64,000 nt of DNA from Nitrosopumilus sp. (GTDB taxonomy: Archaea > Thermoproteota > Nitrososphaeria > Nitrososphaerales > Nitrosopumilaceae). The notes below the pieces were generated by a model. The model was not told the origin of the DNA, did no database searches, and worked only from the letters and a program-made list of their open reading frames with translations. The stretch lies in the NCBI GenBank assembly GCA_965206745.1, contig OZ242220.1, forward strand, positions 1,472,001 to 1,536,000. Direction: 5' to 3'. The position numbers were made by a program, and so were the translations under genes. Numbering within the stretch: position 1 is the stretch's first letter; the number at the start of each line of letters is the position of its first letter. Below are positions 3,480 through 58,600 of the stretch, piece by piece.

Positions 3480-3504
3480 TGTATTCTAAGCCATGATGGT
3501 TTCC

Positions 3505-7054: not shown

Positions 7055-7069
7055 GAGAAATATATTTAA
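7055..7069 (+). promoter_or_regulatory. Probable BRE and TATA box (GAGAAA-TATATTTAA) for the ferredoxin-NADP reductase gene
   Basis: Purine-rich element followed by a TATA-like sequence 26-34 nt upstream of ATG 7095. Confidence 0.5.
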
Positions 7070-7094
7070 CCAAAGTCAGGAAAAAGCTTCTTGT

Positions 7095-9654: not shown

Positions 9655-10338
9655 CTATGCCTTAATCCTGTCCCGTCCGCCTTTGGCGGTTCTAAAAACA
9701 TTCATTCCAAGATAGAAATTCTCATGCAGTGACTCTAGGTAAGTAATCTGGTTCTCAGTATCTGTGATCTCCTTTTGTGTCGCATCAGGATCATCTTGTA
9801 GTTGTGCAAGTTTCCCTTTGAGTTCCTCCAGAAAGGAGTCGACGCCGCGCTCATAGTTTGAAACGCCGGCAAACTCAGGGCTGAGAACGTGCTGTGGGGT
9901 ATATGCAGGGGTTTGATCCTGCGGGATTTCAGCCATTCTTGTCAGCGACTCTTGCTCGTCAGCAGAGAGGATAGGTCGTGGAAAACGGTCTGCCTTGTCC
10001 AGCCAAAATTCTGGTTCGCCCATATCGCGTCTAAAGATCTCCTCGCCCTGTCTCTTAAAAGTATAATCTGATTTTTTTGCCGATTCTGCCTTTACCTCTG
10101 CAGCAATTGCCTTGTACTCTTCTTCTGCTGCCTCCTCTGCTTGCGCCTTGGCTTTGGCTGCATTGGCCAGTGCCTTTTTGACTGCATTTTCTGCAGCTTC
10201 TGCTGCCTTGGTGGCAGCCTCCGCTTTGGCTATTGCAGATTCTGCTGAATTGGCCTCAAGTTTTGCAGCTTGGTTAGTAGCATCTTCGGATGGAGCCTCA
10301 GCAGGCTCTGCCTCTGATTCCTTTTTCTCTTCGGACAA
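9655..10338 (-). CDS. Hypothetical protein with Ala/Glu/Lys-rich coiled-coil-like N-terminus (227 aa)
   Basis: TTG start with TATTAAAA 25-32 nt upstream (10363-10370). Ends 13 bp before the HemA-like gene, so the two are probably co-transcribed. Confidence 0.75.
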   Translation of the reverse strand: MSEEKKESEAEPAEAPSEDATNQAAKLEANSAESAIAKAEAATKAAEAAENAVKKALANAAKAKAQAEEAAEEEYKAIAAEVKAESAKKSDYTFKRQGEEIFRRDMGEPEFWLDKADRFPRPILSADEQESLTRMAEIPQDQTPAYTPQHVLSPEFAGVSNYERGVDSFLEELKGKLAQLQDDPDATQKEITDTENQITYLESLHENFYLGMNVFRTAKGGRDRIKA

Positions 10339-13600: not shown

Positions 13601-16600
13601 TAGCGTAAATGTAAATACAGTATCACCCATATGGTCTTCCGTAGGAGTCCATGTGAATTCTATGTTTCGTCCGGTGGTTGCATTAAGTGTTGCGCCAGTA
13701 GCGGTTGAAGAATCATCTGATAGGGACCATGTCAAAGGATCTCCATCAGGATCCGTACCGGTCAGAGGGAATGTAACTGAGCTGCCTGCATCAACTTGGG
13801 AAGGAGTATTAGGAATGCCTGCGATTACTGGATTCTGGTTTGAAGTGTCTGCATTTACAGTAATTGCGTGAGGTACGCTTGCTCGTTGATTATCAACGTC
13901 AGTCAGAGTGAATGTAAACTCGACTGTAGTATCGACAAACTGTGAACCGGGAGTCCATGAGAATAGTATGTTTTGTCCGGTGGTTGCATTAAGTGTTGCG
14001 CCAGTAGTAGTGGTTGAATTATCTGATAGTCTCCATATTGGCAGAGGATCATTTCTGTCAAGATCATCGCCGGTCACGATAAATGATACGGGACTACCAA
14101 CAATAATTTCTCTAGGAGCAGTACTTGAAATAGGATCTACTGTAGGCGCTCGGTTATTGTTGTTTATTGTCAGTCTGGCATCATATTCTGCTCGTGCTGT
14201 TCCAGCATTATCCTCATAGCTCCAGACAAAGTTATAGATTACCTCGCCTTCTGCATGATTTACTGTATCAAATGGAAGCCTGCCGCCTGCAAATACACCT
14301 GACTGTTCATTTAGGGTCCCTGCAACAGGCAAGTCGCCAGATACGTACCTGAATTCACGTATAATGCCAGGTGGCATTCCGTCAGGATATGTAATTACAC
14401 TAGACAGGGAAGGAATGATCTGATTCTCTGATCTAGTAAAGTTGTATGAACCGATTGTAGCAGGGGTTGGCGGTTCACTTGCTGCAGACACAATAATTGT
14501 GTGCGGTTCAGTGCTAGACCCACCATGACCATCACTTAGCGTAAATGTAAATTCGTTATCACCTATATGCGCTTCTGCAGGAGTCCATGAGAATTCTATG
14601 TTTGATCCGGTGGTTGCATTAAGTGTTGCACCCAGAGTGTTAGGCGATAGAACCCATGTCAAAGAATTCCTATCAGGATCCATACCGGTCACGACAAATG
14701 TGACTGGGTTGCCTACAACAGCTGTGGGATCGGCATCCGCTGGGATGGTTATTTCTGGGTCTCTGACAGGTATATCAAATGATATATCCCTAGTGACTGG
14801 AGTAGTAATTATACCATCAGTCAATTGGACTGTCCTCGTTACCATTTGACCTTCCTGGGAGCTAAGAGGTGTAAATTCATATTCGCCGGTAAGCCTATTA
14901 ATTACTGCGCCCTCATTATTGCCATCAAGTATACTCCATGCAAAGTTAGCAGCATCACCGGGATCAGGATCCATACCCTCAAAATCTATCGGTTCTATTG
15001 CTTCACCTACATTGGGCATATCATCGTAATCTAGTGGGTCATCTATTGTCGGGGATCGGTTGACGTCGGTTACAGTTATGGTACCAGACTGCACCCCTGC
15101 TGATCCAATGCCGTCTGCAAATATCCAATTAAAGTTAAAGGTTACAGAACCTTGTGCAGCGGTTACATCATCAAATGGAATGGTGCCATCAAATTCGCCG
15201 GTGTCAGAATCCAAAAGATTTATGATGCCCTGAGGCAGGTTGCCGCCTGTGACTTCATACCCGGAGATAGTTTGTGCCGGAGTCAGAACAGAATCTATAA
15301 CTTCACTATACAAAGAGGGAAGAGTGTCACCTTCTGCTACTATCTCATCATAGGTATTAAATGAAGGCAGTTCCTCGACTGTCAGGGTGTAGGTACCTGA
15401 ATCAGGACCTGCAGTAGTGCTTGTTGCAGTGTAGTCTATTGCAAAGTCCTGTGATGTCGAACCGTCATTTATGGCATCAAGGTCTAGATTTCCAGTTATG
15501 GTACATGCGGCATTAAGTGTGAGACTGCCAGGCAGTAGGGAGTCAGGGGCACAGGTTATTTCGCCATCACCTGTAACTCCAAGTGGGATGTCTACTGTCT
15601 CACCTTCTGTGCGAGTTGAGGTACCGTTCGGTGCAGTAATTGTTGAAACGTCATCTACCAGTATGGTGCCAGGCTGGGATCCAGATGTAGATTCACCAAC
15701 ACTGTATGTCCATTCAAATGGGAATGGTCGTGGTGAGTTTCCGGCAGTTGTAGCATCATGGGGTACGGTTCCTGCAAATGTTCCATCATCACGGTTTAGC
15801 GTTATGCCAGATGGCAGTGCTTCAGTAAGTACGATGTCATATGTTATGCCAGGTACCGACTCTACACCAACTATTACACTTGCAAGCGAGGTGGGTATTT
15901 GCTGTCCCTCATCGACATCAACAGTGTATGGGCCAGATGTGTCAGGCAGTTCACTTGCTGCTGCAGACACAATAATTGTGTGCGGTTCAGTGCTAGATCC
16001 ACCACGACCATCACTTAGCGTAAATGTAAATTCGTTAGGACCTATATGCGCTTCTGCAGGAGTCCATGTGAATTCTATGCTTGATCCGGTGGTTGCATTA
16101 AGTACTGCACCGGTGGCAGTTGAAGAATCATCTGATAGGGACCATGTCAAAGTATTGCCATCAGGATCCTCACCGGTCACTACAAATGTGACTGGGTCGC
16201 CTACAACAGCTGTGGTATCGGCATCCGGTGGGATGGTTATGATTGGGTCTCTGACAGGTATAGTAAATTCTATTATCCTAGTGGCTGGAGTAGTAATTAT
16301 ACCATCAGTCACTTGGACTGTCCTATCTGCAAATCCACCTTCATGGAAATGAGGAGGCGTATATGTAAAGAATCCGGTTCTCGCATCAATTTCTGCACCC
16401 TGATCATTGCCGCGTTCTAGACTCCATACCAGTTCCTCATCACCATCAAGATGCGTAGCGGTGAACTGTATTTCTACGAGGTCACCTACATTGGGTGTAG
16501 GATCGAAAGTGTCTGGGGTATTTATTGTCGGTGCCAGGTTGACGTTGATTACCTCTATGGAACTAGTCTGAGTTATGTTAGCATTTGGACCGTTGCCGTC

Positions 16601-19600
16601 GTCATTGTATGTCCACCTGAACTCGAACCGTTCTGGTGAGAGTGCGTTAGTTGTCGCATTATGGGATACGGTTCCTTCAAATGTTCCATCATCAGGGTTT
16701 AGCCTTATTCCAAGTGGCAGTTCGCCAGATTCGTGGGTATATCTTATTATGGGGAATAGCGTATCGTCGGGATCATTAATTGCACCTGAGAGGGAACGTA
16801 GTACTGAGTCTCCCTCGCGGACTTGCTCACTGTACGGTGTGTCAGATAGGGACGGTGGTGCGTTTGTCTCTGCCACATCAAATGCGATGGTATAGGTGGC
16901 TACCTTCTCTCCGGGATCAGTCAGGGTGATTATAAAGTGGACTGTGCTGCTGCCGTGGGATTCACCTGGTGTCCACGTGAATATGCCATCTTGATCAATC
17001 ACTGCATTGTTGGTTGCATTTGCCTGTACAGTCCACTCCGGCTCATCATCACCTGTATCAGTGTCAGGATCCATGCCCTCAAAGTCAACTGATACCAATT
17101 CTCCCTCATCAGGTGTATCATCAACAGCACCTGAAGGACCGTCTATCACAGGTGCTCTGTTATAGTTGGTTACAGTGATTGTGCCAGCCCGGACAGGTTC
17201 TGGTGTATTGACGCCGTCATCATATGTCCATTGGATGGTGTAGACTCTGGTAGGGTCTGCATAGGTTGCAGTGTCAAATGGGAATGATGCATCAAATGCG
17301 CCAGTTGTCTCATCAAAGGAGCCGCTGACGACAGCAGGTAGTGGAGGGTCGCTTGATTCTAACGTGTATACGATGGTGCCAGATGACGATTCCACAGGGT
17401 CACTTACCGCACTTGAGAGTGGCGGAATTCTGCCGCCTTCAGATACTCCGGCATTATATTCAGATAGGTCTGGTATCTCGTCTATTGTTGGTGTGAGTTC
17501 CGTCTCAGATACGGTAAATTCAATCTCTTCAGTGGCTCTTGCGCCTATAGGATCAGTGAGGGTGATGTTAAATGAGACAGTGTCTCCATCGCCATACTGA
17601 CCGCCTGGAATCCACAAAAAGTCACCGGTGGCAGGATTGATAATTGCGCCGTCATTGTTTGGAGATATGCCCCATATTGGTGCAGCCTCGCCTGTAGTGT
17701 CATCAGTATCAGGATCCATACCCTCAAAGTCATATGATACTGCTTGGAATTGGGCAGGTGTATTGTTGATACCGTTCGGAGGTGTGATTACAGGCTCTCG
17801 GTTGTCGTTGTTTACTGTCAGTATGGCAAACATTTGAGGCGGTGATGGGTTGGTGTCATCTGTATACGTCCATGTAATGTTATAGTTTACAAAGCCTGGA
17901 TCAGAGTCTGCAGTGTCAAATGGGAACGTGTCTGAAAAGTCACCGGTTGCACTATCAATGGTGATACCAGGCAGTGGAGGGTCACTTGATACAAATGTAT
18001 AACTGATGGTACCGTCTGGAGAATCTTCGGCAGGGTCGCTGACTACGATGGAGAGTGACGGTACATCCTGTCCTTCAAGGATTGACTGTGAGTATTGGAC
18101 AATTCGGGGCGGATCACTTTCTGGCGTGTTTGGAGTGTCAGTTATGACAAATGGGACAGTCCTTGTGACCTGCTCATCTGCAGCATCAGTTAAGGTGAAT
18201 ATAACATCTACTGTGCCGGCGTGGGACTCGCCTGGAATCCACAGGAATGTGCCGTTTTCTGGATGAATCGTTGCATCGACAGTAGCATCAGCAGAGGATA
18301 CGCTCCACCTTGGCAGAGGATCGTTTGTGTCCTCATCAGAGCCGCTGGCAATAAATGATATTATTTCAAACTCAGAGTATGTCCTGGGGCCCGGAATCAG
18401 GTCAATTGTAGGTGCTCGGTTCTCGTTCTCTACAGTCAGGATGCCGTGCTGTACAGGAGAGGTTACAGAGTTGTATGTAAGGGTCCACTCAAACTCGTAG
18501 GTTGCAGGATCCTCCAAGGCAGATACCGTATCGTATGGAATGACATTTCTAAATGCGCCGGTGTTAGTATTCAGGAGATCTTTGAGGGATTCAGGCAGGG
18601 TGCCTTCTCCGATGTCGTAGACTAGTGTGGCGCCTGGTGGAATTGTATCGGGGTCAACTGCATCAGACAGTGAAGGAATCACGCTATTCTCTGCTACTCT
18701 TTCTGTGTAGGAGGTAAATGTCGGTTCGACACTTTGAGGCGGCTCGGTTCTCTCCTGCACGTCAACTGTGATGATTCGGTCATCCTTGTCCCCTGCAGGA
18801 TCAGTGAGGGTGAGCTTGAATGAGGCCGTGGTACTGGCATGAGTGTCATCAGGGGTCCACGTGAATAGACCGCTTGTCCTGCCAATCTCTGCACCGTCAT
18901 CATTTGGAGATATGCTCCATGTTGGGGCAGCCTCGCCTGTAGCAGAATCAGTATCGGGATCATCGCCTGTCATGGTAAATTGCAGGGTATCTCCAGGACT
19001 AGGTGAGACAAACGAGGGTGTTGCACCTATCACGGGCTCTCGGTTGTCGTTGTTTACTCGCAACGAGCCGAATTGTTCCTCTGGTACTGCACCACTGCCG
19101 TCTGTATACATCCATGTTATCTCATATCGTATAAAGCCAGGATCAGAGTCTGTGGTGTTAAATGGGAATGATCCGTCAAAGTCACCGGTGTTCTCATCAA
19201 AGTCGACGTCATCAGGCAGGTCCGGGCTGATGTCTAACAATTCATAACGGATGGCACCGTCTGGCGGAACCTCTACGGGATCTCGGACCAGTTCTGAGAG
19301 ACTGGGAATTGGACTGCCTTCCAATACTCCCCTCACGTAACGGAATATGGCAGGTTCCTCATTTACGTCTGGCGTGTCATCAACATTAGTTATGGTAAAG
19401 TCAAGCGGTACATCGTCTTTGTCACCTACAGGATCAGTGAGGGTGACGTTAAATGAGACTGTGTCTCCCTCGTCATACTGGTCACCCACAATCCACGTGA
19501 ATGCCCCACTGGTGGAATTGATGTATGCACCGTCATCATTTGGAGATATGCTCCATGTTGGGGGATCATCACCTGTATCAGTATCTTCATCCATACCCTC

Positions 19601-22600
19601 AAAGTCAAATGATACTGTTTGGAGTTCTGTAGGGTTTTCGTTGAAGCCGGTTCGAGTTGTAATTACAGGTGCCCGGTTGTCGTTGTTTACTGTCAGTATG
19701 GCAAACTGTTCATCTGATGTACCAGTGCCGTCTGTATACGTCCATGTAATGTTATAGGTTACAAAGCCCGGATCAGAGTTTACAGTGTCAAATGGGAACG
19801 TGGCTGAAAAGTCACCGGTTGCCCCAATGGCGACAGGCAGTGGAGGGTCACTTGATACAAATGTATAACTGATGGCACCGACTGTCCCATCCTCGGCAGG
19901 GTCGCTGACTGCGATGGAGAGTGACGGGACATCCTGTCCTTCAAGTACAGTCTGTGAGTATGAGACAATTCGGGGCGGATCGTCACCTGACGTGTTTGGA
20001 GTGTCAATTATGTTAAATATGACAGTCTCTGTGTCCAGCTCACCTGCAGCATCAGTCAAGTTAAATGTAAACAGGATTGTGCTGCCGCCGCGAGACTCAT
20101 CTGGAATCCACAGGAATGCCCCATTCTCCAGATGAATCTCTGCATCAGTGGAGACGGTGGCATTGTCCGATACACTCCACCTTGGCAGAGGATCGTTTGT
20201 GTCCTCATCAAAGCCTCGCACGGTAAATGATATTATTTCAAACTCAGAGTATGTCCTGGGGCCCGGAATCGGATCAACTGTTGGCAGTCTGTTGTTGTTC
20301 TCTACAGTTATGGTACTGTACTGCATCGGCGATGTTCCGGTGCCGTCCTCAAATGTCCACTCAATCTCGTAGGTTACAGAACCCTCCAGGGCAGATACCG
20401 TATCAAATGGGAACGTGGCTGAAAAGTCACCGGTTGCCGTATCAAAGGATCCTCTGATGTCATCAGGCAGGTTGTGTGATGTGATATTATATGTGGATAC
20501 AAGGTCTGCCTCTGCTTCCTCAGGGTTGGTGACTGCATCAGATAGTGAAGGGATTGGCGCATCCTCCTGTATCCTTTCTGTATAGGAGGCAAATGTCGGC
20601 ACATTGTTTGGATCTACTGTAAACGTGTGGATTGCAGTGGCAGGGATACCTTCCTCATCAGTTATGCTGAATGTGAATTCGACTCCAGTACCGCCATGCA
20701 CATCACGTGGAGTCCACGAGAATACACCACTCTGAGAAATTGTTGCATCTGTATTGGCATCAGAGTCATTAGAGGATACGCTCCATGTTGGCGGGTCGTC
20801 ATTGGTGTCATCATCCCCGCCTAGCAGGGCAACTGGTACATTTTGACCGACAAAAATCAGTTCAGGTGTACCATCTGGAACCTGGATGGTTGGGAGCTGG
20901 TTGAGGTTCGTTACGTTTAGTGTACCAGGCTGATTCGGTGATGTTGTTCCAGAGCCGTCAGTGAAGGTCCACGCAAACGTAAAGAATTGGAATTCTTGCT
21001 CAAATGATACGGTATCAAATGGAATGACAGGACTAAACGCGCCAGTGTTTTCATTCAGAGTAACTGCAACCATACTCAGATTGCCAATTCCATCTACGAT
21101 GGCATATCTGGGAGGGGTCTCTGAGGATTCATCAAGGTTGTTGACGAAATCAGAGAGGGGAGGAACGGCATCACCTTCTGGCACTGTCTCGGCATACATA
21201 TCAAATGGGGATGTCACAGCATTGACTGTCAGGGTGTAGGTACCTGAAGCAGTATCTACAGTGTTTGTTGCATCGTATTCTATTGTAAATTGCCGCGATA
21301 ATTCTCCGTCAGGTACGACATTATCACTTATAGTACCAGTTATGGCACAGTTCATCTCATCAAATATGAGATCGTCAGGCAGGTTCCTGGGGTCGGTGAT
21401 GGTACAGGTTACGCCGCCTGGACCCGTAGCTCCAAGTGGGATGTCTACTGTCTCACCTTCTGTGCGAGTTGAGGTACCGTTCGGTGCAGTAATTGTTGAA
21501 ACGTCATCTACCAGTATGGTGCCAGGCTGGGATCCAGATGTAGATTCACCAACACTGTATGTCCATTCAAATGGGAATGGTCGTGGTGAGTTTCCGGCAG
21601 TTGTGGCATCATGGGGTACGGTTCCTGCAAATGTTCCATCATCACGGTTTAGCGTTATGCCAGATGGCAGTGCTTCAGTAAGTACGATGTCATATGTTAT
21701 GCCAGGTACCGACTCTACACCAACTATTACACTTGCAAGCGAGGTGGGTATTTGCTGTCCCTCATCGACATCAACAGTGTATGGGCCAGATGTGTCAGGC
21801 AGTTCACTTGCTGCTGCAGACACAATAATTGTGTGCGGTTCAGTGCTAGATCCACCACGACCATCACTTAGCGTAAATGTAAATTCGTTAGGACCTATAT
21901 GCGCTTCTGCAGGAGTCCATGTGAATTCTATGCTTGATCCGGTGGTTGCATTAAGTACTGCACCGGTGGCAGTTGAAGAATCATCTGATAGGGACCATGT
22001 CAAAGTATTGCCATCAGGATCCTCACCGGTCACTACAAATGTGACTGGGTCGCCTACAACAGCTGTGGTATCGGCATCCGGTGGGATGGTTATGATTGGG
22101 TCTCTGACAGGTATAGTAAATTCTATTATCCTAGTGGCTGGAGTAGTAATTATACCATCAGTCACTTGGACTGTCCTATCTGCAAATCCACCTTCATGGA
22201 AATGAGGAGGCGTATATGTAAAGAATCCGGTTCTCGCATCAATTTCTGCACCCTGATCATTGCCGCGTTCTAGACTCCATACCAGTTCCTCATCACCATC
22301 AAGATGCGTAGCGGTGAACTGTATTTCTACGAGGTCACCTACATTGGGTGTAGGATCGAAAGTGTCTGGGGTATTTATTGTCGGTGCCAGGTTGACGTTG
22401 ATTACCTCTATGGAACTAGTCTGAGTTATGTTAGCATTTGGACCGTTGCCGTCGTCATTGTATGTCCACCTGAACTCGAACCGTTCTGGTGAGAGTGCGT
22501 TAGTTGTCGCATTATGGGATACGGTTCCTTCAAATGTTCCATCATCAGGGTTTAGCCTTATTCCAAGTGGCAGTTCGCCAGATTCGTGGGTATATCTTAT

Positions 22601-25600
22601 TATGGGGAATAGCGTATCGTCGGGATCATTAATTGCACCTGAGAGGGAACGTAGTACTGAGTCTCCCTCGCGGACTTGCTCACTGTACGGTGTGTCAGAT
22701 AGGGACGGTGGTGCGTTTGTCTCTGCCACATCAAATGCGATGGTATAGGTGGCTACCTTCTCTCCGGGATCAGTCAGGGTGATTATAAAGTGGACTGTGC
22801 TGCTGCCGTGGGATTCACCTGGTGTCCACGTGAATATGCCATCTTGATCAATCACTGCATTGTTGGTTGCATTTGCCTGTACAGTCCACTCCGGCTCATC
22901 ATCACCTGTATCAGTGTCAGGATCCATGCCCTCAAAGTCAACTGATACCAATTCTCCCTCATCAGGTGTATCATCAACAGCACCTGAAGGACCGTCTATC
23001 ACAGGTGCTCTGTTATAGTTGGTTACAGTGATTGTGCCAGCCCGGACAGGTTCTGGTGTATTGACGCCGTCATCATATGTCCATTGGATGGTGTAGACTC
23101 TGGTAGGGTCTGCATAGGTTGCAGTGTCAAATGGGAATGATGCATCAAATGCGCCAGTTGTCTCATCAAAGGAGCCGCTGACGACAGCAGGTAGTGGAGG
23201 GTCGCTTGATTCTAACGTGTATACGGGGGTGCCAGTTGTCGAATCCTCTACAGGGTCACTTACCGCACTTGAGAGTGGCGGAATTCTGCCGCCTTCAGAT
23301 ACTCCGGCATTATATTCAGATAGGTCTGGTATCTCGTCTATTGTTGGTGTGAGTTCCGTCTCAGATACGGTAAATTCAATCTCTTCAGTGGCTCTTGCGC
23401 CTATAGGATCAGTGAGGGTGATGTTAAATGAGACAGTGTCTCCATCGCCATACTGACCGCCTGGAATCCACAAAAAGTCACCGGTGGCAGGATTGATAAT
23501 TGCGCCGTCATTGTTTGGAGATATGCCCCATATTGGTGCAGCCTCGCCTGTAGTGTCATCAGTATCAGGATCCATACCCTCAAAGTCATATGATACTGCT
23601 TGGAATTGGGCAGGTGTATTGTTGATACCGTTCGGAGGTGTGATTACAGGCTCTCGGTTGTCGTTGTTTACTGTCAGTATGGCAAACATTTGAGGCGGTG
23701 ATGGGTTGGTGTCATCTGTATACGTCCATGTAATGTTATAGTTTACAAAGCCTGGATCAGAGTCTGCAGTGTCAAATGGGAACGTGTCTGAAAAGTCACC
23801 GGTTGCACTATCAATGGTGATACCAGGCAGTGGAGGGTCACTTGATACAAATGTATAACTGATGGTACCGTCTGGAGAATCTTCGGCAGGGTCGCTGACT
23901 ACGATGGAGAGTGACGGTACATCCTGTCCTTCAAGGATTGACTGTGAGTATTGGACAATTCGGGGCGGATCACTTTCTGGCGTGTTTGGAGTGTCAGTTA
24001 TGACAAATGGGACAGTCCTTGTGACCTGCTCATCTGCAGCATCAGTTAAGGTGAATATAACATCTACTGTGCCGGCGTGGGACTCGCCTGGAATCCACAG
24101 GAATGTGCCGTTTTCTGGATGAATCGTTGCATCGACAGTAGCATCAGCAGAGGATACGCTCCACCTTGGCAGAGGATCGTTTGTGTCCTCATCAGAGCCG
24201 CTGGCAATAAATGATATTATTTCAAACTCAGAGTATGTCCTGGGGCCCGGAATCAGGTCAATTGTAGGTGCTCGGTTCTCGTTCTCTACAGTCAGGATGC
24301 CGTGCTGTACAGGAGAGGTTACAGAGTTGTATGTAAGGGTCCACTCAAACTCGTAGGTTGCAGGATCCTCTAGGGCAGATACCGTATCGTATGGAATGAC
24401 ATTTCTAAATGCGCCGGTGTTAGTATTCAGGAGATCTTTGAGGGATTCAGGCAGGGTGCCTTCTCCGATGTCGTAGACTAGTGTGGCGCCTGGTGGAATT
24501 GTATCGGGGTCAACTGCATCAGACAGTGAAGGAATCACGCTATTCTCTGCTACTCTTTCTGTGTAGGAGGTAAATGTCGGTACTACACTTTCAGGCACAG
24601 TTGGAACGTCAGTTACATGTATGGTACTAGTCTGTATTAGAGATTCAGTTGGACCGTCACTGTATCTCCACATGAACGTGAAAGGTTCTGGCGAGTCTTC
24701 GGCAGTTGTCGCATCATGGGATACGGTTCCTACAAATGATCCATCAGGGTTTAGATCTATTCCAAGTGGCAGTTCGCCAGATTCGTGGGTATATGTTATG
24801 GGAGATGTCGGATCGCCTGGATCATCAACTGCATCTGAGAGCGGAAAGTCAATTGTTTGTCCCTCGTTGACGCTAGCAGCGTATCCATTGGTAACTGTAC
24901 CGGGTAATCCGATTATCTCTGCCACATCAAATGTGATGATACGAGTGACTACTTTCTTTCCGGGATCAGTCAGGACGAATGTGAATTCGACTGTGCTACC
25001 ACCGTGAGTATGATCAGTAGGCCACGTGAATGCGCCATTTATCCTATCAATGACTGCATTGTTGGTTGCATTTGCCTGTACGGTCCACTCTGGAGGATCA
25101 TCGCCTGCAACAGTGGCAGTACGGGTATCAGGATCAGAGCCAAACAGGGTAAAGAATACTGTTTGACCCTCCGAAGGGTTTCTGTCAATACCAGAAGTGC
25201 CGTCTATCACAGGTGCTCTGTTATAGTTGGTTACAGTGATTGTGCCAGCCCGGACAGGTTCTGGTGTATTGACGCCGTCATCATATGTCCATTGGATGGT
25301 GTAGACTCTGGTAGGGTCTGCATAGGTTGCAGTGTCAAATGGGAATGATGCATCAAATGCGCCAGTTGTCTCATCAAAGGAGCCGCTGACGACAGCAGGT
25401 AGTGGAGGGTCGCTTGATTCTAACGTGTATACGATGGTGCCAGATGACGATTCCACAGGGTCACTTACCGCACTTGAGAGTGGCGGAATTCTGCCGCCTT
25501 CAGATACTCCGGCATTATATTCAGATAGGTCTGGTATCTCGTCTATTGTTGGTGTGAGTTCCGTCTCAGATACGGTAAATTCAATCTCTTCAGTGGCTCT

Positions 25601-46600: not shown

Positions 46601-49600
46601 TTCGTTAGGACCTATATGCGCTTCTGCAGGAGTCCATGTGAATTCTATGCTTGATCCGGTGGTTGCATTAAGTACTGCACCGGTGGCAGTTGAAGAATCA
46701 TCTGATAGGGACCATGTCAAAGTATTGCCATCAGGATCCTCACCGGTCACTACAAATGTGACTGGGTCGCCTACAACAGCTGTGGTATCGGCATCCGGTG
46801 GGATGGTTATGATTGGGTCTCTGACAGGTATAGTAAATTCTATTATCCTAGTGGCTGGAGTAGTAATTATACCATCAGTCACTTGGACTGTCCTATCTGC
46901 AAATCCACCTTCATGGAAATGAGGAGGCGTATATGTAAAGAATCCGGTTCTCGCATCAATTTCTGCACCCTGATCATTGCCGCGTTCTAGACTCCATACC
47001 AGTTCCTCATCACCATCAAGATGCGTAGCGGTGAACTGTATTTCTACGAGGTCACCTACATTGGGTGTAGGATCGAAAGTGTCTGGGGTATTTATTGTCG
47101 GTGCCAGGTTGACGTTGATTACCTCTATGGAACTAGTCTGAGTTATGTTAGCATTTGGACCGTTGCCGTCGTCATTGTATGTCCACCTGAACTCGAACCG
47201 TTCTGGTGAGAGTGCGTTAGTTGTCGCATTATGGGATACGGTTCCTTCAAATGTTCCATCATCAGGGTTTAGCCTTATTCCAAGTGGCAGTTCGCCAGAT
47301 TCGTGGGTATATCTTATTATGGGGAATAGCGTATCGTCGGGATCATTAATTGCACCTGAGAGGGAACGTAGTACTGAGTCTCCCTCGCGGACTTGCTCAC
47401 TGTACGGTGTGTCAGATAGGGACGGTGGTGCGTTTGTCTCTGCCACATCAAATGCGATGGTATAGGTGGCTACCTTCTCTCCGGGATCAGTCAGGGTGAT
47501 TATAAAGTGGACTGTGCTGCTGCCGTGGGATTCACCTGGTGTCCACGTGAATATGCCATCTTGATCAATCACTGCATTGTTGGTTGCATTTGCCTGTACA
47601 GTCCACTCCGGCTCATCATCACCTGTATCAGTGTCAGGATCCATGCCCTCAAAGTCAACTGATACCAATTCTCCCTCATCAGGTGTATCATCAACAGCAC
47701 CTGAAGGACCGTCTATCACAGGTGCTCTGTTATAGTTGGTTACAGTGATTGTGCCAGCCCGGACAGGTTCTGGTGTATTGACGCCGTCATCATATGTCCA
47801 TTGGATGGTGTAGGTTCTGGTCGGGTCTGCATAGGTTGCAGTGTCAAATGGGAATGATGCATCAAATGCGCCAGTTGTCTCATCAAAGGAGCCGCTGACG
47901 ACAGCAGGTAGTGGAGGGTCGCTTGATTCTAACGTGTATACGATGGTGCCAGATGACGATTCCACAGGGTCACTTACCGCACTTGAGAGTGGCGGAATTC
48001 TGCCGCCTTCAGATACTCCGGCATTATATTCAGATAGGTCTGGTATCTCGTCTATTGTTGGTGTGAGTTCCGTCTCAGATACGGTAAATTCAATCTCTTC
48101 AGTGGCTCTTGCGCCTATAGGATCAGTGAGGGTGATGTTAAATGAGACAGTGTCTCCATCGCCATACTGACCGCCTGGAATCCACAAAAAGTCACCGGTG
48201 GCAGGATTGATAATTGCGCCGTCATTGTTTGGAGATATGCCCCATATTGGTGCAGCCTCGCCTGTAGTGTCATCAGTATCAGGATCCATACCCTCAAAGT
48301 CATATGATACTGCTTGGAATTGGGCAGGTGTATTGTTGATACCGTTCGGAGGTGTGATTACAGGCTCTCGGTTGTCGTTGTTTACTGTCAGTATGGCAAA
48401 CATTTGAGGCGGTGATGGGTTGGTGTCATCTGTATACGTCCATGTAATGTTATAGTTTACAAAGCCTGGATCAGAGTCTGCAGTGTCAAATGGGAACGTG
48501 TCTGAAAAGTCACCGGTTGCACTATCAATGGTGATACCAGGCAGTGGAGGGTCACTTGATACAAATGTATAACTGATGGTACCGTCTGGAGAATCTTCGG
48601 CAGGGTCGCTGACTACGATGGAGAGTGACGGTACATCCTGTCCTTCAAGGATTGACTGTGAGTATTGGACAATTCGGGGCGGATCACTTTCTGGCGTGTT
48701 TGGAGTGTCAGTTATGACAAATGGGACAGTCCTTGTGACCTGCTCATCTGCAGCATCAGTTAAGGTGAATATAACATCTACTGTGCCGGCGTGGGACTCG
48801 CCTGGAATCCACAGGAATGTGCCGTTTTCTGGATGAATCGTTGCATCGACAGTAGCATCAGCAGAGGATACGCTCCACCTTGGCAGAGGATCGTTTGTGT
48901 CCTCATCAGAGCCGCTGGCAATAAATGATATTGTTTCAAACTCAGAGTATGTCCTGGGGCCCGGAATCAGGTCAATTGTAGGTGCTCGGTTCTCGTTCTC
49001 TACAGTCAGGATGCCGTGCTGTACAGGAGAGGTTACAAAGTCGTATGTAAGGGTCCACTCAAACTCGTAGGTTGCAGGATCCTCCAAGGCAGATACCGTA
49101 TCGTATGGAATGACATTTCTAAATGCGCCGGTGTTAGTATTCAGGAGATCTTTGAGGGATTCAGGCAGGGTGCCTTCTCCGATGTCGTAGACTAGTGTGG
49201 CGCCTGGTGGAATTGTATCGGGGTCAACTGCATCAGACAGTGAAGGAATCACGCTATTCTCTGCTACTCTTTCTGTGTAGGAGGTAAATGTCGGTTCGAC
49301 ACTTTGAGGCGGCTCGGTTCTCTCCTGCACGTCAACTGTGATGATTCGGTCATCCTTGTCCCCTGCAGGATCAGTGAGGGTGAGCTTGAATGAGGCCGTG
49401 GTACTGGCATGAGTGTCATCAGGGGTCCACGTGAATAGACCGCTTGTCCTGCCAATCTCTGCACCGTCATCATTTGGAGATATGCTCCATGTTGGGGCAG
49501 CCTCGCCTGTAGCAGAATCAGTATCGGGATCATCGCCTGTCATGGTAAATTGCAGGGTATCTCCAGGACTAGGTGAGACAAACGAGGGTGTTGCACCTAT

Positions 49601-52600
49601 CACGGGCTCTCGGTTGTCGTTGTTTACTCGCAACGAGCCGAATTGTTCCTCTGGTACTGCACCACTGCCGTCTGTATACATCCATGTTATCTCATATCGT
49701 ATAAAGCCAGGATCAGAGTCTGTGGTGTTAAATGGGAATGATCCGTCAAAGTCACCGGTGTTCTCATCAAAGTCGACGTCATCAGGCAGGTCCGGGCTGA
49801 TGTCTAACAATTCATAACGGATGGCACCGTCTGGCGGAACCTCTACGGGATCTCGGACCAGTTCTGAGAGACTGGGAATTGGACTGCCTTCCAATACTCC
49901 CCTCACGTAACGGAATATGGCAGGTTCCTCATTTACGTCTGGCGTGTCATCAACATTAGTTATGGTAAAGTCAAGCGGTACATCGTCTTTGTCACCTACA
50001 GGATCAGTGAGGGTGACGTTAAATGAGACTGTGTCTCCCTCGTCATACTGGTCACCCACAATCCACGTGAATGCCCCACTGGTGGAATTGATGTATGCAC
50101 CGTCATCATTTGGAGATATGCTCCATGTTGGGGGATCATCACCTGTATCAGTATCTTCATCCATACCCTCAAAGTCAAATGATACTGTTTGGAGTTCTGT
50201 AGGGTTTTCGTTGAAGCCGGTTCGAGTTGTAATTACAGGTGCCCGGTTGTCGTTGTTTACTGTCAGTATGGCAAACTGTTCATCTGATGTACCAGTGCCG
50301 TCTGTATACGTCCATGTAATGTTATAGGTTACAAAGCCCGGATCAGAGTTTACAGTGTCAAATGGGAACGTGGCTGAAAAGTCACCGGTTGCCCCAATGG
50401 CGACAGGCAGTGGAGGGTCACTTGATACAAATGTATAACTGATGGCACCGACTGTCCCATCCTCGGCAGGGTCGCTGACTGCGATGGAGAGTGACGGGAC
50501 ATCCTGTCCTTCAAGTACAGTCTGTGAGTATGAGACAATTCGGGGCGGATCGTCACCTGACGTGTTTGGAGTGTCAATTATGTTAAATATGACAGTCTCT
50601 GTGTCCAGCTCACCTGCAGCATCAGTCAAGTTAAATGTAAACAGGATTGTGCTGCCGCCGCGAGACTCATCTGGAATCCACAGGAATGCCCCATTCTCCA
50701 GATGAATCTCTGCATCAGTGGAGACGGTGGCATTGTCCGATACACTCCACCTTGGCAGAGGATCGTTTGTGTCCTCATCAAAGCCTCGCACGGTAAATGA
50801 TATTATTTCAAACTCAGAGTATGTCCTGGGGCCCGGAATCGGATCAACTGTTGGCAGTCTGTTGTTGTTCTCTACAGTTATGGTACTGTACTGCATCGGC
50901 GATGTTCCGGTGCCGTCCTCAAATGTCCACTCAATCTCGTAGGTTACAGAACCCTCCAGGGCAGATACCGTATCAAATGGGAACGTGGCTGAAAAGTCAC
51001 CGGTTGCCGTATCAAAGGATCCTCTGATGTCATCAGGCAGGTTGTGTGATGTGATATTATATGTGGATACAAGGTCTGCCTCTGCTTCCTCAGGGTTGGT
51101 GACTGCATCAGATAGTGAAGGGATTGGCGCATCCTCCTGTATCCTTTCTGTATAGGAGGCAAATGTCGGCACATTGTTTGGATCTACTGTAAACGTGTGG
51201 ATTGCAGTGGCAGGGATACCTTCCTCATCAGTTATGCTGAATGTGAATTCGACTCCAGTACCGCCATGCACATCACGTGGAGTCCACGAGAATACACCAC
51301 TCTGAGAAATTGTTGCATCTGTATTGGCATCAGAGTCATTAGAGGATACGCTCCATGTTGGCGGGTCGTCATTGGTGTCATCATCCCCGCCTAGCAGGGC
51401 AACTGGTACATTTTGACCGACAAAAATCAGTTCAGGTGTACCATCTGGAACCTGGATGGTTGGGAGCTGGTTGAGGTTCGTTACGTTTAGTGTACCAGGC
51501 TGATTCGGTGATGTTGTTCCAGAGCCGTCAGTGAAGGTCCACGCAAACGTAAAGAATTGGAATTCTTGCTCAAATGATACGGTATCAAATGGAATGACAG
51601 GACTAAACGCGCCAGTGTTTTCATTCAGAGTAACTGCAACCATACTCAGATTGCCAATTCCATCTACGATGGCATATCTGGGAGGGGTCTCTGAGGATTC
51701 ATCAAGGTTGTTGACGAAATCAGAGAGGGGAGGAACGGCATCACCTTCTGGCACTGTCTCGGCATACATATCAAATGGGGATGTCACAGCATTGACTGTC
51801 AGGGTGTAGGTACCTGAAGCAGTATCTACAGTGTTTGTTGCATCGTATTCTATTGTAAATTGCCGCGATAATTCTCCGTCAGGTACGACATTATCACTTA
51901 TAGTACCAGTTATGGTACATGCCTCATCATTAAATCTGAGATCGTCAGGCAGGTTCCTGGGGTCGGTGATGGTACAGGTTACGCCACCTGGACCCGTAGC
52001 TCCAAGTGGGATGTCTACTGTCTCACCTTCTGTGCGAGTTGAGGTACCGTTCGGTGCAGTAATTGTTGAAACGTCATCTACCAGTATGGTGCCAGGCTGG
52101 GATCCAGATGTAGATTCACCAACACTGTATGTCCATTCAAATGGGAATGGTCGTGGTGAGTTTCCGGCAGTTGTAGCATCATGGGGTACGGTTCCTGCAA
52201 ATGTTCCATCATCACGGTTTAGCGTTATGCCAGATGGCAGTGCTTCAGTAAGTACGATGTCATATGTTATGCCAGGTACCGACTCTACACCAACTATTAC
52301 ACTTGCAAGCGAGGTGGGTATTTGCTGTCCCTCATCGACATCAACAGTGTATGGGCCAGATGTGTCAGGCAGTTCACTTGCTGCTGCAGACACAATAATT
52401 GTGTGCGGTTCAGTGCTAGATCCACCACGACCATCACTTAGCGTAAATGTAAATTCGTTAGGACCTATATGCGCTTCTGCAGGAGTCCATGTGAATTCTA
52501 TGCTTGATCCGGTGGTTGCATTAAGTACTGCACCGGTGGCAGTTGAAGAATCATCTGATAGGGACCATGTCAAAGTATTGCCATCAGGATCCTCACCGGT

Positions 52601-55600
52601 CACTACAAATGTGACTGGGTCGCCTACAACAGCTGTGGTATCGGCATCCGGTGGGATGGTTATGATTGGGTCTCTGACAGGTATAGTAAATTCTATTATC
52701 CTAGTGGCTGGAGTAGTAATTATACCATCAGTCACTTGGACTGTCCTATCTGCAAATCCACCTTCATGGAAATGAGGAGGCGTATATGTAAAGAATCCGG
52801 TTCTCGCATCAATTTCTGCACCCTGATCATTGCCGCGTTCTAGACTCCATACCAGTTCCTCATCACCATCAAGATGCGTAGCGGTGAACTGTATTTCTAC
52901 GAGGTCACCTACATTGGGTGTAGGATCGAAAGTGTCTGGGGTATTTATTGTCGGTGCCAGGTTGACGTTGATTACCTCTATGGAACTAGTCTGAGTTATG
53001 TTAGCATTTGGACCGTTGCCGTCGTCATTGTATGTCCACCTGAACTCGAACCGTTCTGGTGAGAGTGCGTTAGTTGTCGCATTATGGGATACGGTTCCTT
53101 CAAATGTTCCATCATCAGGGTTTAGCCTTATTCCAAGTGGCAGTTCGCCAGATTCGTGGGTATATCTTATTATGGGGAATAGCGTATCGTCGGGATCATT
53201 AATTGCACCTGAGAGGGAACGTAGTACTGAGTCTCCCTCGCGGACTTGCTCACTGTACGGTGTGTCAGATAGGGACGGTGGTGCGTTTGTCTCTGCCACA
53301 TCAAATGCGATGGTATAGGTGGCTACCTTCTCTCCGGGATCAGTCAGGGTGATTATAAAGTGGACTGTGCTGCTGCCGTGGGATTCACCTGGTGTCCACG
53401 TGAATATGCCATCTTGATCAATCACTGCATTGTTGGTTGCATTTGCCTGTACAGTCCACTCCGGCTCATCATCACCTGTATCAGTGTCAGGATCCATGCC
53501 CTCAAAGTCAACTGATACCAATTCTCCCTCATCAGGTGTATCATCAACAGCACCTGAAGGACCGTCTATCACAGGTGCTCTGTTATAGTTGGTTACAGTG
53601 ATTGTGCCAGCCCGGACAGGTTCTGGTGTATTGACGCCGTCATCATATGTCCATTGGATGGTGTAGACTCTGGTAGGGTCTGCATAGGTTGCAGTGTCAA
53701 ATGGGAATGATGCATCAAATGCGCCAGTTGTCTCATCAAAGGAGCCGCTGACGACAGCAGGTAGTGGAGGGTCGCTTGATTCTAACGTGTATACGGGGGT
53801 GCCAGTTGTCGAATCCTCTACAGGGTCACTTACCGCACTTGAGAGTGGCGGAATTCTGCCGCCTTCAGATACTCCGGCATTATATTCAGATAGTACAGGT
53901 GGCTCATTGTCTGTGGTGGGTGCCGTCTCAGATACGGTAAATTCAATCTCTTCAGTGGCTCTTGCGCCTATAGGATCAGTGAGGGTGATGTTAAATGAGA
54001 CAGTGTCTCCATCGCCATACTGACCGCCTGGAATCCACAAAAAGTCACCGGTGGCAGGATTGATAATTGCGCCGTCATTGTTTGGAGATATGCCCCATAT
54101 TGGTGCAGCCTCGCCTGTAGTGTCATCAGTATCAGGATCCATACCCTCAAAGTCATATGATACTGCTTGGAATTGGGCAGGTGTATTGTTGATACCGTTC
54201 GGAGGTGTGATTACAGGCTCTCGGTTGTCGTTGTTTACTGTCAGTATGGCAAACATTTGAGGCGGTGATGGGTTGGTGTCATCTGTATACGTCCATGTAA
54301 TGTTATAGTTTACAAAGCCTGGATCAGAGTCTGCAGTGTCAAATGGGAACGTGTCTGAAAAGTCACCGGTTGCACTATCAATGGTGATACCAGGCAGTGG
54401 AGGGTCACTTGATACAAATGTATAACTGATGGTACCGTCTGGAGAATCTTCGGCAGGGTCGCTGACTACGATGGAGAGTGACGGTACATCCTGTCCTTCA
54501 AGGATTGACTGTGAGTATTGGACAATTCGGGGCGGATCACTTTCTGGCGTGTTTGGAGTGTCAGTTATGACAAATGGGACAGTCCTTGTGACCTGCTCAT
54601 CTGCAGCATCAGTTAAGGTGAATATAACATCTACTGTGCCGGCGTGGGACTCGCCTGGAATCCACAGGAATGTGCCGTTTTCTGGATGAATCGTTGCATC
54701 GACAGTAGCATCAGCAGAGGATACGCTCCACCTTGGCAGAGGATCGTTTGTGTCCTCATCAGAGCCGCTGGCAATAAATGATATTATTTCAAACTCAGAG
54801 TATGTCCTGGGGCCCGGAATCAGGTCAATTGTAGGTGCTCGGTTCTCGTTCTCTACAGTCAGGATGCCGTGCTGTACAGGAGAGGTTACAAAGTCGTATG
54901 TAAGGGTCCACTCAAACTCGTAGGTTGCAGGATCCTCCAGGGCAGATACCGTATCGTATGGAATGGTATCTGTAAATGCGCCGGTGTTAGTATTCAGGAG
55001 ATCTTTGAGGGATTCAGGCAGGGTGCCTTCTCCGATGTCGTAGACTAGTGTGGCGCCTGGTGGAATTGTATCGGGGTCAACTGCATCAGACAGTGAAGGA
55101 ATCACGCTATTCTCTGCTACTCTTTCTGTGTAGGAGGTAAATGTCGGTTCAGCACTTTGAGGCGGCTCGGTTCTCTCCTGCACGTCAACTGTGATGATTC
55201 GGTCATCCTTGTCCCCTGCAGGATCAGTGAGGGTGAGCTTGAATGAGGCCGTGGTACTGGCATGAGTGTCATCAGGGGTCCACGTGAATAGACCGCTTGT
55301 CCTGCCAATCTCTGCACCGTCATCATTTGGAGATATGCTCCATGTTGGGGCAGCCTCGCCTGTAGCAGAATCAGTATCGGGATCATCGCCTGTCATGGTA
55401 AATTGCAGGGTATCTCCAGGACTAGGTGAGACAAACGAGGGTGTTGCACCTATCACGGGCTCTCGGTTGTCGTTGTTTACTCGCAACGAGCCGAATTGTT
55501 CCTCTGGTACTGCACCACTGCCGTCTGTATACATCCATGTTATCTCATATCGTATAAAGCCAGGATCAGAGTCTGTGGTGTTAAATGGGAATGATCCGTC

Positions 55601-58600
55601 AAAGTCACCGGTGTTCTCATCAAAGTCGACGTCATCAGGCAGGGACGGGCTGATGTCTAACAATTCATAACGGATGTCACCGTCTGGCGGAATCTCTACG
55701 GGATCTCGGACCAGTTCTGAGAGACTGGGAATTGGACTGCCTTCCAATACTCCCCTCACGTAACGGAATATGGCAGGTTCCTCATTTACGTCTGGCGTGT
55801 CATCAACATTAGTTATGGTAAAGTCAAGCGGTACATCGTCTTTGTCACCTACAGGATCAGTGAGGGTGACGTTAAATGAGACTGTGTCTCCCTCGTCATA
55901 CTGGTCACCCACAATCCACGTGAATGCCCCACTGGTGGAATTGATGTATGCACCGTCATCATTTGGAGATATGCTCCATGTTGGGGGATCATCACCTGTA
56001 TCAGTATCTTCATCCATACCCTCAAAGTCAAATGATACTGTTTGGAGTTCTGTAGGGTTTTCGTTGAAGCCGGTTCGAGTTGTAATTACAGGTGCCCGGT
56101 TGTCGTTGTTTACTGTCAGTATGGCAAACTGTTCATCTGATGTACCAGTGCCGTCTGTATACGTCCATGTAATGTTATAGGTTACAAAGCCCGGATCAGA
56201 GTTTACAGTGTCAAATGGGAACGTGGCTGAAAAGTCACCGGTTGCCCCAATGGCGACAGGCAGTGGAGGGTCACTTGATACAAATGTATAACTGATGGTA
56301 CCGACTGTCCCATCCTCGGCAGGGTCGCTGACTGCGATGGAGAGTGACGGGACATCCTGTCCTTCAAGTACAGTCTGTGAGTATGAGACAATTCGGGGCG
56401 GATCGTCACCTGACGTGTTTGGAGTGTCAATTATGTTAAATATGACAGTCTCTGTGTCCAGCTCACCTGCAGCATCAGTCAAGTTAAATGTAAACAGGAT
56501 TGTGCTGCCGCCGCGAGACTCATCTGGAATCCACAGGAATGCCCCATTCTCCAGATGAATCTCTGCATCAGTGGAGACGGTGGCATTGTCCGATACACTC
56601 CACCTTGGCAGAGGATCGTTTGTGTCCTCATCAAAGCCTCGCACGGTAAATGATATTATTTCAAACTCAGAGTATGTCCTGGGGCCCGGAATCGGATCAA
56701 CTGTTGGCAGTCTGTTGTTGTTCTCTACAGTTATGGTACTGTACTGCATCGGCGATGTTCCGGTGCCGTCCTCAAATGTCCACTCAATCTCGTAGGTTAC
56801 AGAACCCTCCAGGGCAGATACCGTATCAAATGGGAACGTGGCTGAAAAGTCACCGGTTGCCGTATCAAAGGATCCTCTGATGTCATCAGGCAGGTTGTGT
56901 GATGTGATATTATATGTGGATACAAGGTCTGCCTCTGCTTCCTCAGGGTTGGTGACTGCATCAGATAGTGAAGGGATTGGCGCATCCTCCTGTATCCTTT
57001 CTGTATAGGAGGTAAATGTCGGTGATGGGCTTGCCCCTACATCAAATGCGATATCCTTCATGGCTTTTCCTGCACGGCCATCAGTCAGCGTTACGGTAAA
57101 TATGACACGGGTATTGGCTTGGTCTTGGGTTGGAGTAAATGTGAATAATCCGTCCTGATCAATATCTGCACCATCAGGAGCGCCATCTAGATTAAGAGGC
57201 GATATGCCCCATCCTAGGTCATCATCGTCAGGATCCTCACCAGTCAGGGTGAATTGTACGATATCTCCAGGATTAGGTGTAGAGTCAAAAGGCGGATCGT
57301 TAGTTATCATAGGGGGTCGGTTGGTATTGGTTACATTTAATATACCAATCTGGTTATCGGGGTTCCCAGTGCCGTCCTCGAATGTCCAGACAAACACAAA
57401 GAGTTGAAAATCAAGTGAATTGGCTACTGCACTATGGGAGACATTACCACTAAAGGTACCATTGTTTCTATTCAGAGAAGAGACTATGACATCTGGGAGT
57501 CCAGATATGATTGTATAGATGGATGTGTCGTCTTCTGGAATTTCATCAGGATTATCAACTACACCAGACAGTGGAGGAATTCTATCCTCATTGCTACCTT
57601 CTGTGGCCTGTCCTGTATATTGCCCAATTCTTGGTCGCGTGTTTACATCCTCCACCTCAAATGTAATGATCTCATTGTCTACCTTCTGTCCGGGATCAGT
57701 GAGGGTGAATGTGAATCTGACTGTGGTGTCGCCGTGAGTGTCATCTGGAGTCCACGTGAAGAGGCCATTTTGATCAATGACTGCATCAGTAGTTGCATTT
57801 GCCAGTACAGTCCATTCCGGCGGGTCATCACCTGAAACAGTAGCAGTACGAGTATCAGGATCAGAGCCAGTCAGCGTAAATGATGTCATTTGCTGCTCTG
57901 GAGGCGTTCTGTCGATACCAGAGGGGTCTTCTATCATTGGGCGCCGGTTCTCATTGGTTACCGTGATTGTGCCAGTCTCAGGGTCTTGTGGCGGTGTATT
58001 GACGCCGTCACTATACCTCCATTGGATGGTATAGACTCGGGTCGGCTCTGCATAGGTTGTAGTGTTAAATGGGAATGGTTCGCCAAATTCGCCGGTTGTA
58101 TCATCAAAGGAGTCCATGACGGCATCAGGCAGGGCAGGGACGCTTGATTCTAACGTGTATGCGATGGTGCCAGATGCCGAATCCTCTACAGGGTCACTTA
58201 CCGCACTTGAGAGTGGCGGAATCCTGTCGCCTTCTGATACTCCGGCATTATAATCAAATAGTATGGGTTCCTCGTCTGGTATTGTGAGTGCCGTCTCAGT
58301 TACGGTAAATTCAATCTCTTCAGTGTCTGCTGCACCTGCAGGATCAGTGAGGGTGACGTTAAATGAGACTGTGTCTCCGCCGTGCTCATCGCCTGGAATC
58401 CACAGGAATACACCAGATTCAGGATTGATAATTGCGCCGTCATCATTTGGAGATATGCTCCATGTTGGGGCAGCCTCGCCTGTAGCAGGATCAGTATCAG
58501 GATCTATACCCTCAAAGTCAAATGATATGGATTCAAATTCTGCAAGCGTATCATCAATGGTTGGAGGTGTAATTACAGGCTCTCGGTTGAAGTTGTTTAC

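Follow-up and report, generated by a model that had tools for sequence, protein, structure and literature searches.

The giant repeat-adhesin type of protein is already known from bacteria, for example from the ice-binding adhesin of Marinomonas primoryensis, LapA and SiiE. By description, these proteins are long extracellular chains of ~100-amino-acid (aa) beta-sandwich domains with Asp/Asn-rich linkers, their repeats are near-identical in DNA, and the chain is presumed to be a Ca2+-stiffened extender that holds the binding region off the cell. The higher-order repeats of satellite DNA and ribosomal DNA (rDNA) undergo concerted evolution by unequal crossing-over. Among archaea, halomucin of Haloquadratum walsbyi is a very large secreted protein. 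In this study, we analyzed a stretch of 64,000 nucleotides (nt) from Nitrosopumilus sp. (assembly GCA_965206745.1, contig OZ242220.1, positions 1,472,001 to 1,536,000), called the window below, which holds a giant gene with nested repeat cassettes; positions are those of the window unless another contig is named. The gene resembles the giant adhesins in the respects listed above. It differs from them in its archaeal host, its N-terminal signal peptide, its different and uncatalogued C-terminal domain, and its repeats, which lie one within another at five levels (up to 16.7 kb) and do not make up a single simple array. Halomucin, about half the length of the giant protein, is likewise a very large secreted archaeal protein, but by description it belongs to a different phylum and has a different domain make-up. 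Thus, the type is familiar, and the host, the size (unusually large for an archaeon) and the nested architecture are unusual. In the accessible text of one study, archaeal proteins of more than 10,000 aa are few and mostly from Asgard archaea (10.1101/2023.11.21.568195), and in that of another even proteins of more than 5,000 aa are few (PMC11573180). Cadherin, Ig-like (immunoglobulin-like) and HYR domains and expanded S-layer-like proteins have been described for sponge Thaumarchaeota, and giant cassette genes are unmentioned in the accessible portions of those papers (PMC7848895, PMC6790972). A search of one full-text collection found no account of a Nitrosopumilus gene of this kind.

The whole cassette array is held by a single minus-strand open reading frame (ORF; 10661..64000, continuing past the window end) without internal stops. 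The frame ends with a stop at 10661 and is bounded upstream by a stop at window coordinate 66857, giving 18,731 codons from stop to stop. A TTG start lies outside the window at ~66847, four codons into the frame, so that the product has 18,728 aa. The gene length of 56.2 kb is 3% of the 1.86-Mb genome, and its GC content is 47.8%, against 41.2% genome-wide. The protein is very acidic in composition (T 13.2%, D 10.6%, K 0.5%, C 0.1%). After the TTG, its N-terminus reads MNIALVVGFCLVLSLATIPVFAQ, which is signal-peptide-like. A TATA-like element, TTATATATAA, lies ~20-30 nt upstream of the TTG, and this box may be a promoter placed as expected for a leaderless archaeal transcript. We consider it probable that this is one real gene of ~56.2 kb, which would encode an exported cadherin-like chain and whose cassettes were shaped by repeated in-frame homologous recombination.

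A preliminary description of the window had read the array, from the N- to the C-terminal side, as PQRS-PQRS-PQTQRS-P-U-S-PQTQRS-PQR, with U as a single-copy block. We recovered all 25 markers (6 P, 7 Q, 5 R, 5 S and 2 T) at the positions given there, each with 0/60 mismatches to the first copy of its class. The marker scan covered the whole window with a tolerance of <=8/60 mismatches, and within this tolerance P, R, S and T had no additional sites. The Q marker had six additional near-matches, every one within P cassettes, because P and Q have a sub-repeat in common. Median exact 25-mer copy numbers per 500-bp bin were 5, 6 or 7 for the cassettes, 2 for T and 1 for U; the counts of 6/7/5/5/2 and the single-copy U of the description thus agree with the assembly. 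When the window was compared with itself by megablast, the described periods of 5,853 and 8,061 bp were also recovered (offsets 5,853-5,859 and 8,061 bp; 8,061-5,853 = 2,208). The recurrence of a 10.7-kb block at a distance of 16,656 bp proved correct as well, with boundaries that had been set 11 bp off: the pair 18738-29482 / 35394-46138 spans 10,745 bp and is 99.888% identical, with 12 mismatches and 0 gaps. Exact repeats reach at most 5,844 bp, and inside the 10.7-kb pair the longest exact run is 4,948 bp. The periods of 5,853, 8,061, 2,208, 8,595 and 16,656 bp are each a multiple of 3. Of the array limits proposed earlier, 57022 is the point at which high identity stops, and 15577 falls inside a zone (~15,750 to 15,377) in which identity fades rather than ends.

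Mapped on one extended unit, the N-to-C order is a (5,853 bp), b (5,853 bp), c (8,061 bp), Pd (1,862 bp), U (5,911 bp), S-tail (822 bp), e (8,061 bp) and f (5,223 bp, partial), all on the minus strand. Unit a (51170..57022), a basic unit at the N-terminal array edge, is the most diverged full unit. Unit b (45317..51169) is a basic P-Q-R-S unit of 1,951 aa, and unit c (37256..45316) is the extended unit used as reference. Unit e (20600..28660) is also extended, consists of P, Q-head, T-tail, Q-head, Q-tail, R and S, and matches c at 99.93% with 6 mismatches and no gaps. Unit f (15377..20599) is a truncated P-Q-R unit of the basic type. Between c and e lie P copy d (35394..37255), which adjoins U and has 6 differences from the majority sequence (5 non-synonymous and 1 synonymous), then U (29483..35393), and then the S-tail fragment x (28661..29482), which is 100% identical to the final 822 bp of unit c. 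Copy 1 of the 10,745-bp block (18738..29482, minus strand) therefore comprises the S-tail, unit e and the P of unit f, and copy 2 (35394..46138, minus strand) comprises the S-tail of unit b, unit c and P copy d. On the N-terminal side, the array is followed by a region of older cadherin-like di-domains with 75-80% DNA identity to the cassettes (57023..64000, minus strand, continuing outside the window). On the other side, diverged C-terminal cadherin-like di-domains, recognized by a hidden Markov model (HMM) of the di-domain, are present in single copy (11513..15376, minus strand; k-mer copy number mostly 1).

The two T segments (copy 1, 41249..42017; copy 2, 24593..25361; both minus strand) are 99.6% identical. 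The two Q copies of the extended unit are almost identical over their first ~1,400 nt and ~25-30% different over the last 750 nt. Therefore, T is a variant Q-tail plus a half-domain and not an unrelated block; copy 2 is 76% identical to ordinary Q-tails. We also considered a recent import of T from a paralogue and rejected it: the best match outside the gene is 69%, and the best match elsewhere is 86% to a part of U, over 450 nt.

U is single-copy, as had been described, at high identity only (k-mer copy number 1). At lower identity it is related to the cassettes, with 75-86% DNA identity to Q/T segments, and its protein (1,971 aa) is collinear with the unit interior, at 47% over 1,655 aa and 64% over 759 aa. 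If U were a foreign insertion, a mobile element or a horizontally acquired segment that split a regular array, its single-copy state at high identity and its position between 2,684-bp direct repeats would be expected. However, besides being collinear with the unit interior, U is tiled by the identical di-domain type, is in frame with the rest of the gene, carries exact 28-36-nt patches in common with Q copies and is similar in GC content to the remaining gene. A foreign origin is thus very improbable. Pd, U and the S-tail together make up 8,595 bp and represent one old unit, homogenized with the others at its ends and drifted in its core. With U as an old unit core, both 10.7-kb blocks are one tract (S-tail, extended unit and P) on either side of it. 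U also has an internal repeat, 30668-32251 versus 33512-35104, which is 75% identical, with copies 2,844-2,853 bp apart.

The copies in the interior of the array are very young by sequence. Among the six P copies, four have the same sequence across 1,860 nt, and the remaining two have 6 differing sites each. In the 10.7-kb pair, the 12 mismatches affect 2 synonymous and 8 non-synonymous codons, near the neutral expectation. The synonymous divergence (dS) between interior copies is 0-0.002, against 0.30-0.79 in comparisons of older modules. Such identity over 10.7 kb is impossible by chance. Substitutions against the majority sequence number 45 in a, 6 in b, 0 in c, 6 in d, 0 in x, 0 in e and 63 in f, and all 63 of f are confined to the last ~360 columns (alignment columns 7058-7417). 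A homogenized interior with diverged edges is what concerted evolution classically produces. The three Q copies of the basic units are three different mosaics of diagnostic Qa/Qb haplotype sites, with different switch points, and short haplotype patches in the linker regions are common to copies in varying combinations, one of them also to U. The earlier claims that the copies match even at synonymous sites and that they recombined recently are both well founded on these data, the two unit lengths included. In its nested periods, homogenized interior, diverged edges and mosaic haplotypes, the array is like those of satellite DNA and rDNA; unlike them, it is translated, so that its periods must keep the frame and its breakpoints lie at domain borders.

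These results give good support to a history in which blocks that keep the frame and end at domain borders underwent homologous recombination repeatedly, with the copying of a 10.7-kb tract as one very recent event. Old duplications would have given the P, Q and R/S modules, after which the P-Q-R-S unit of 1,951 aa was presumably amplified. One unit would then have gained the 736-aa insert (Q-head plus the variant tail T). In the latest event, the 10.7-kb tract (S-tail, extended unit and P) would have been copied across the old diverged core U. Unequal crossing-over and gene conversion may hold the interior copies identical, synonymous sites included, while the array edges drift. The two processes are inseparable on these data, and the multi-switch Q mosaics point to gene conversion as well. 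Units of 5,853 and 8,061 bp coexist, which means that the length has changed in frame, by 736 aa, at least once.

We then compared the assembly with sequencing runs. Part of the U stretch is present in eight runs from four studies. The contigs of runs X6, X1 and X8 and the raw reads of X9 were compared with 29383-41310, which covers U and one copy of each cassette; in X1, joints with a shorter side of <30 nt were disregarded. In X6, three U contigs had k-mer depths of 437-588, and one of them crossed the U|P junction with 0 differences. The depths of the cassette contigs were 2,033-2,198 (four R/S contigs), 2,372 (P) and 2,720-3,702 (Q-head), that is, ~4, ~4.5 and 5-7 times the mean U depth. 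Read depth had been proposed as the check on the copy numbers. The multi-copy state, at 4-7 times U, and the ranking Q > P > R/S were reproduced, and the exact ratios of 5/6/7 were not, the values being lower. All five X6 loose ends checked matched other places in the window, for example the array start at 57023 and P|Q junctions, and the X6 contigs showed no junction absent from the assembly. The U|P junction was crossed again by a contig of X1, which is from an independent study. We conclude that several copies and the U junction really exist, and we treat the exact order and numbers of the assembly as provisional.

Hints of a differing structure came from X1 and X8 and rest on short contigs. 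In X1, a 441-nt contig joins 35085 back to 32233, a 2,853-bp back-joint within U, which may reflect either a duplication or a difference by conversion in a related strain that is ~3-4% diverged. X8 showed the cassettes at depth 3-10 and little of U. Its joint 36891->40876 was considered as a P/Q hybrid and rejected, since P and Q share exact 31-mers (a 35-mer) there and a graph-path error is possible.

Several observations weigh against the gene as we read it. The cassette order and exact number are those given by the assembly, and with a longest exact repeat of 5,844 bp they can be resolved only by long reads. X6 may be the assembly's own sample, and even there the R/S depth over the mean U depth was ~4.0, not 5. 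At 35877/35878, 40875, 40980/40984, 41027 and 41029, the X6 contigs showed only the allele of other copies, so the copy-specific differences at those sites are unconfirmed. In X1 the cassette depth was not raised over U, which could be due to a smaller number of copies in that run or just to strain diversity. The raw reads of X9 included 0 reads on 29383-41310 and hence gave no depth information. On the protein side, neither a membrane anchor nor a known sorting signal was found at the C-terminus of the giant protein, and because of this its attachment to the cell can only be supposed. The ratio of non-synonymous to synonymous divergence (dN/dS) of the modules is 0.6-0.9, which implies weak constraint. 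The same weak constraint on the older modules speaks against the idea that the copies are old and have been held identical by purifying selection on the protein. As the identity extends to synonymous sites (dS 0-0.002), we find that idea hardly credible.

The depth and allele discrepancies would be explained if the array had been expanded, collapsed or mis-ordered in assembly, so that the order or the counts of 6/7/5/5/2 match no real molecule. The longest exact repeat and the 10.7-kb pair, with only 12 mismatches, would make such an error easy to imagine. Moreover, the source is probably a metagenome assembly, as relatives are labelled as metagenome-assembled genomes. Against an artefact, the frame is open over 56 kb with every period a multiple of 3, the cassette k-mer depth is 4-7 times that of U and ranked as expected, X6 has the U|P junction at single-copy depth and X1 also contains it, and the loose ends checked in X6 all fit the assembly. 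The genome is also nearly closed (2 contigs, 99.6% complete), and the second contig is unrelated to the gene. We therefore regard an assembly artefact as quite improbable and retain the real, recombining gene as the best explanation.

The sequence might also have been homogenized without any change in length, by conversion between cassettes whose number is fixed by selection. The multi-switch mosaics of Q point to conversion tracts and not to single crossovers, no novel junction was seen in X6, and two 10.7-kb blocks around a diverged core could be obtained by conversion at constant length. However, two unit lengths and also partial units coexist, array sizes are very different among paralogues and relatives, and unequal exchange could readily take place between the exact repeats, which reach 5.8 kb. 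The 2,853-bp back-joint in U and the unraised cassette depth of X1 argue weakly in the same direction. A stable length is thus rather unlikely. In a gene shaped by in-frame recombination, as we prefer to read it, continuing cassette gain and loss, like an accordion, is plausible.

The encoded chain is cadherin-like. In six long pieces of it, the Pfam families He_PIG (PF05345), Big_9 (PF17963) and Cadherin_5 (PF17892) were above their curated cut-offs with one exception (Cadherin_5 in the piece 44003-51001, 22.8 bits versus a cut-off of 26.5). When 100-aa pieces of one unit were compared with the whole unit, an internal period of 205-210 aa appeared, which consists of two alternating ~100-aa domains. 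The di-domain HMM had 94 matches that tile aa 143-18448 nearly gap-free. The protein is therefore a chain of ~90 tandem ~206-aa di-domains, or roughly 175-180 cadherin-like beta-sandwich domains. Cassettes start at 57022, 51169, 45316, 37255, 28660 and 20599, and each of these positions is exactly the start of a di-domain. P consists of three di-domains, and Q of three plus a fourth, weaker-scoring one that spans the Q/R border; what remains of R/S comprises one di-domain and two half-domains. An extended unit has 736 aa more than a basic one, and these amount to three di-domains and a half-domain.

An AlphaFold2 (AF2) model of the di-domain, with 30 non-redundant internal copies as input, had a predicted local distance difference test score (pLDDT) of 91 and showed two beta-sandwiches. 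Its top Foldseek matches were N-cadherin EC1-2, protocadherin-15 and SraP (E 5e-8; template modelling (TM) score of 0.61 to 4m00_A), and the di-domain profile also matched protocadherin-15 by sequence (E 4.4e-5). Fold, tandem arrangement, the protocadherin-15 match and the Pfam matches are thus common to this chain and to eukaryotic and bacterial cadherin-like proteins (SraP, 4m00). The chain differs from those proteins in that two domain types alternate in a 206-aa di-domain, with the motif NxNRxP in only one linker of each. Across the 30 di-domains, E12, N101-x-N103-R-x-P106 and D131-x-D133 are invariant or nearly so. We take E12, NxNRxP and DxD to resemble the motifs of cadherin Ca2+ sites, and the linkers between domains may therefore bind Ca2+. 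A Rib domain (Rib/alpha-C family) was not found, as RibLong scored 17.8 bits (E 0.0059), short of its cut-off of 27. No RTX, HemolysinCabind or type-1 secretion family was found by Pfam or by NCBIfam scans of the first 949, next 1,000 and last 999 aa, which is a weak test of absence. Judged by its signal-peptide-like start, the giant protein is probably exported, and it is most likely a very long surface fibre or adhesin, probably stiffened by Ca2+. With some 180 domains of ~4.5 nm each, such a fibre would be ~0.8 um long by our estimate.

The protein closes with a conserved domain of ~330-340 aa (10664..11683, minus strand), a family tag shared with paralogues and with other genomes of the genus. 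It has a GGSSNDWKKKPTFGKSW motif, two invariant Cys and a helical tail, and an alignment of 15 sequences contained 33 invariant columns. Five paralogues in this genome (ORFs of 5,232, 3,984, 2,978, 1,631 and 1,257 aa) carry it at 73-77% aa identity, so that it closes six large acidic proteins here. It was found in 36 of 120 other genus genomes, in ORFs of up to 11,434 aa and with matches down to E 1e-109, and its identity to the large surface proteins of other Nitrosopumilus genomes is 41-56%. All relatives with the domain are Nitrosopumilus or Nitrosopumilaceae. Among the carriers, Candidatus (Ca.) N. hexadellus and Ca. N. detritiferus are sponge symbionts according to the accessible text of PMC6697440, and Ca. 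Nitrosospongia ianthellae is a symbiont of the sponge Ianthella basta according to that of PMC6790972. The dN/dS of the domain is 0.29-0.39. Its AF2 model (pLDDT 68) has a beta-sandwich core. No Pfam family was above cut-off; DUF2436 was tried as an assignment and not used (21.4 bits versus a cut-off of 25). The domain was also compared with solved structures with thaumarchaeal S-layer proteins in view: its profile had 0 matches in the PDB at E<=1, and the fold had no Foldseek match at E<=0.001, VIA Z of at most 8.1 with generic Ig-like chains only, and no usable match in the ESM Atlas. The passenger repeats that the domain carries are unrelated from species to species, and the domain may thus serve as a module for attachment or export.

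The rest of the giant protein is poorly represented in relatives. No orthologue of the gene was found in 150 other genus genomes, where the P cassette had only one weak match, and the N-terminal 1,000 aa had only two marginal matches (E ~1e-4) in 30 relatives. The cadherin-like modules are thus nearly private to this genome, as far as homology searches go. The other large surface proteins of Nitrosopumilus are like the giant protein in their C-terminal domain, in being huge and acidic and often in having near-identical internal arrays; their passenger domains differ. In the 11,434-aa ORF of one relative (G120 C1:674001-710000), 26,073 of 34,302 bases (76%) are in repeats of >=95% identity. Its array has a simple 1,476-bp tandem period, with units 98-99% identical, and is not nested, and the di-domain HMM had 0 matches in the protein. 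The G120 repeats look like a different Ig-like type. In the present genome, the 3,984-aa paralogue (C1:618619-630570) has a 588-bp array at C1:622454-628347, with ~10 copies that are 97-99% identical. Six of 42 related loci contain >=3.7 kb of >=90% repeats. The arrays in the relative and the paralogue indicate that recent internal amplification is a trait of the family, and the nested five-level array described here is the extreme case among those examined.

Taken further, these results suggest that this may be the largest gene so far in ammonia-oxidizing archaea and among the largest in Archaea, that its product may be a length-tunable surface tether, and that its C-terminal domain may be a new module for attachment or export. 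We offer this combined reading tentatively, as possible rather than probable. If it is true, the coincidence of domain borders with exact in-frame repeats as long as 5.8 kb would lead cells of the same species to add and drop blocks of 736-5,552 aa, and fibre length would differ between strains or hosts. A symbiont would thereby have a fast and reversible way to alter its reach or its exposure to the host. That a single gene occupies 3% of a small genome implies that its benefit is strong and probably lies in attachment. In addition, the locus offers a clean example from nature of higher-order repeats that are nested and in frame within a prokaryotic coding sequence, and short-read genomes of such archaea must miss or break genes like this. 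The uncatalogued C-terminal domain could offer a way into the question of how such archaea display very large proteins without a known anchor.

The adjoining genes in the window are ordinary archaeal ones, namely those for the RFC large subunit, biotin carboxylase, carboxyltransferase and glutamyl-tRNA reductase. Two ORFs beside the giant gene, 9655-10338 (minus strand, 227 aa) and 5055-6173 (minus strand, 372 aa), had no NCBIfam match at E<=0.001. The small contig C2 (2,066 bp) of this assembly is self-repetitive, with direct and inverted internal repeats. It was considered as an unplaced cassette and rejected, as it is without similarity to the chromosome contig C1. On C1, a 5.4-kb dispersed duplication (1009906-1015289 / 1030935-1036318) has copies that are 99.93% identical and 21 kb apart, and both carry an acidic ORF of the same length, 1,725 aa. 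Just beyond the window, at C1:1547422-1596393, there is a cluster of large acidic ORFs (1,213-5,232 aa), several of which share a ...LIRAYNMT..C tail, a second family of C-terminal tags.

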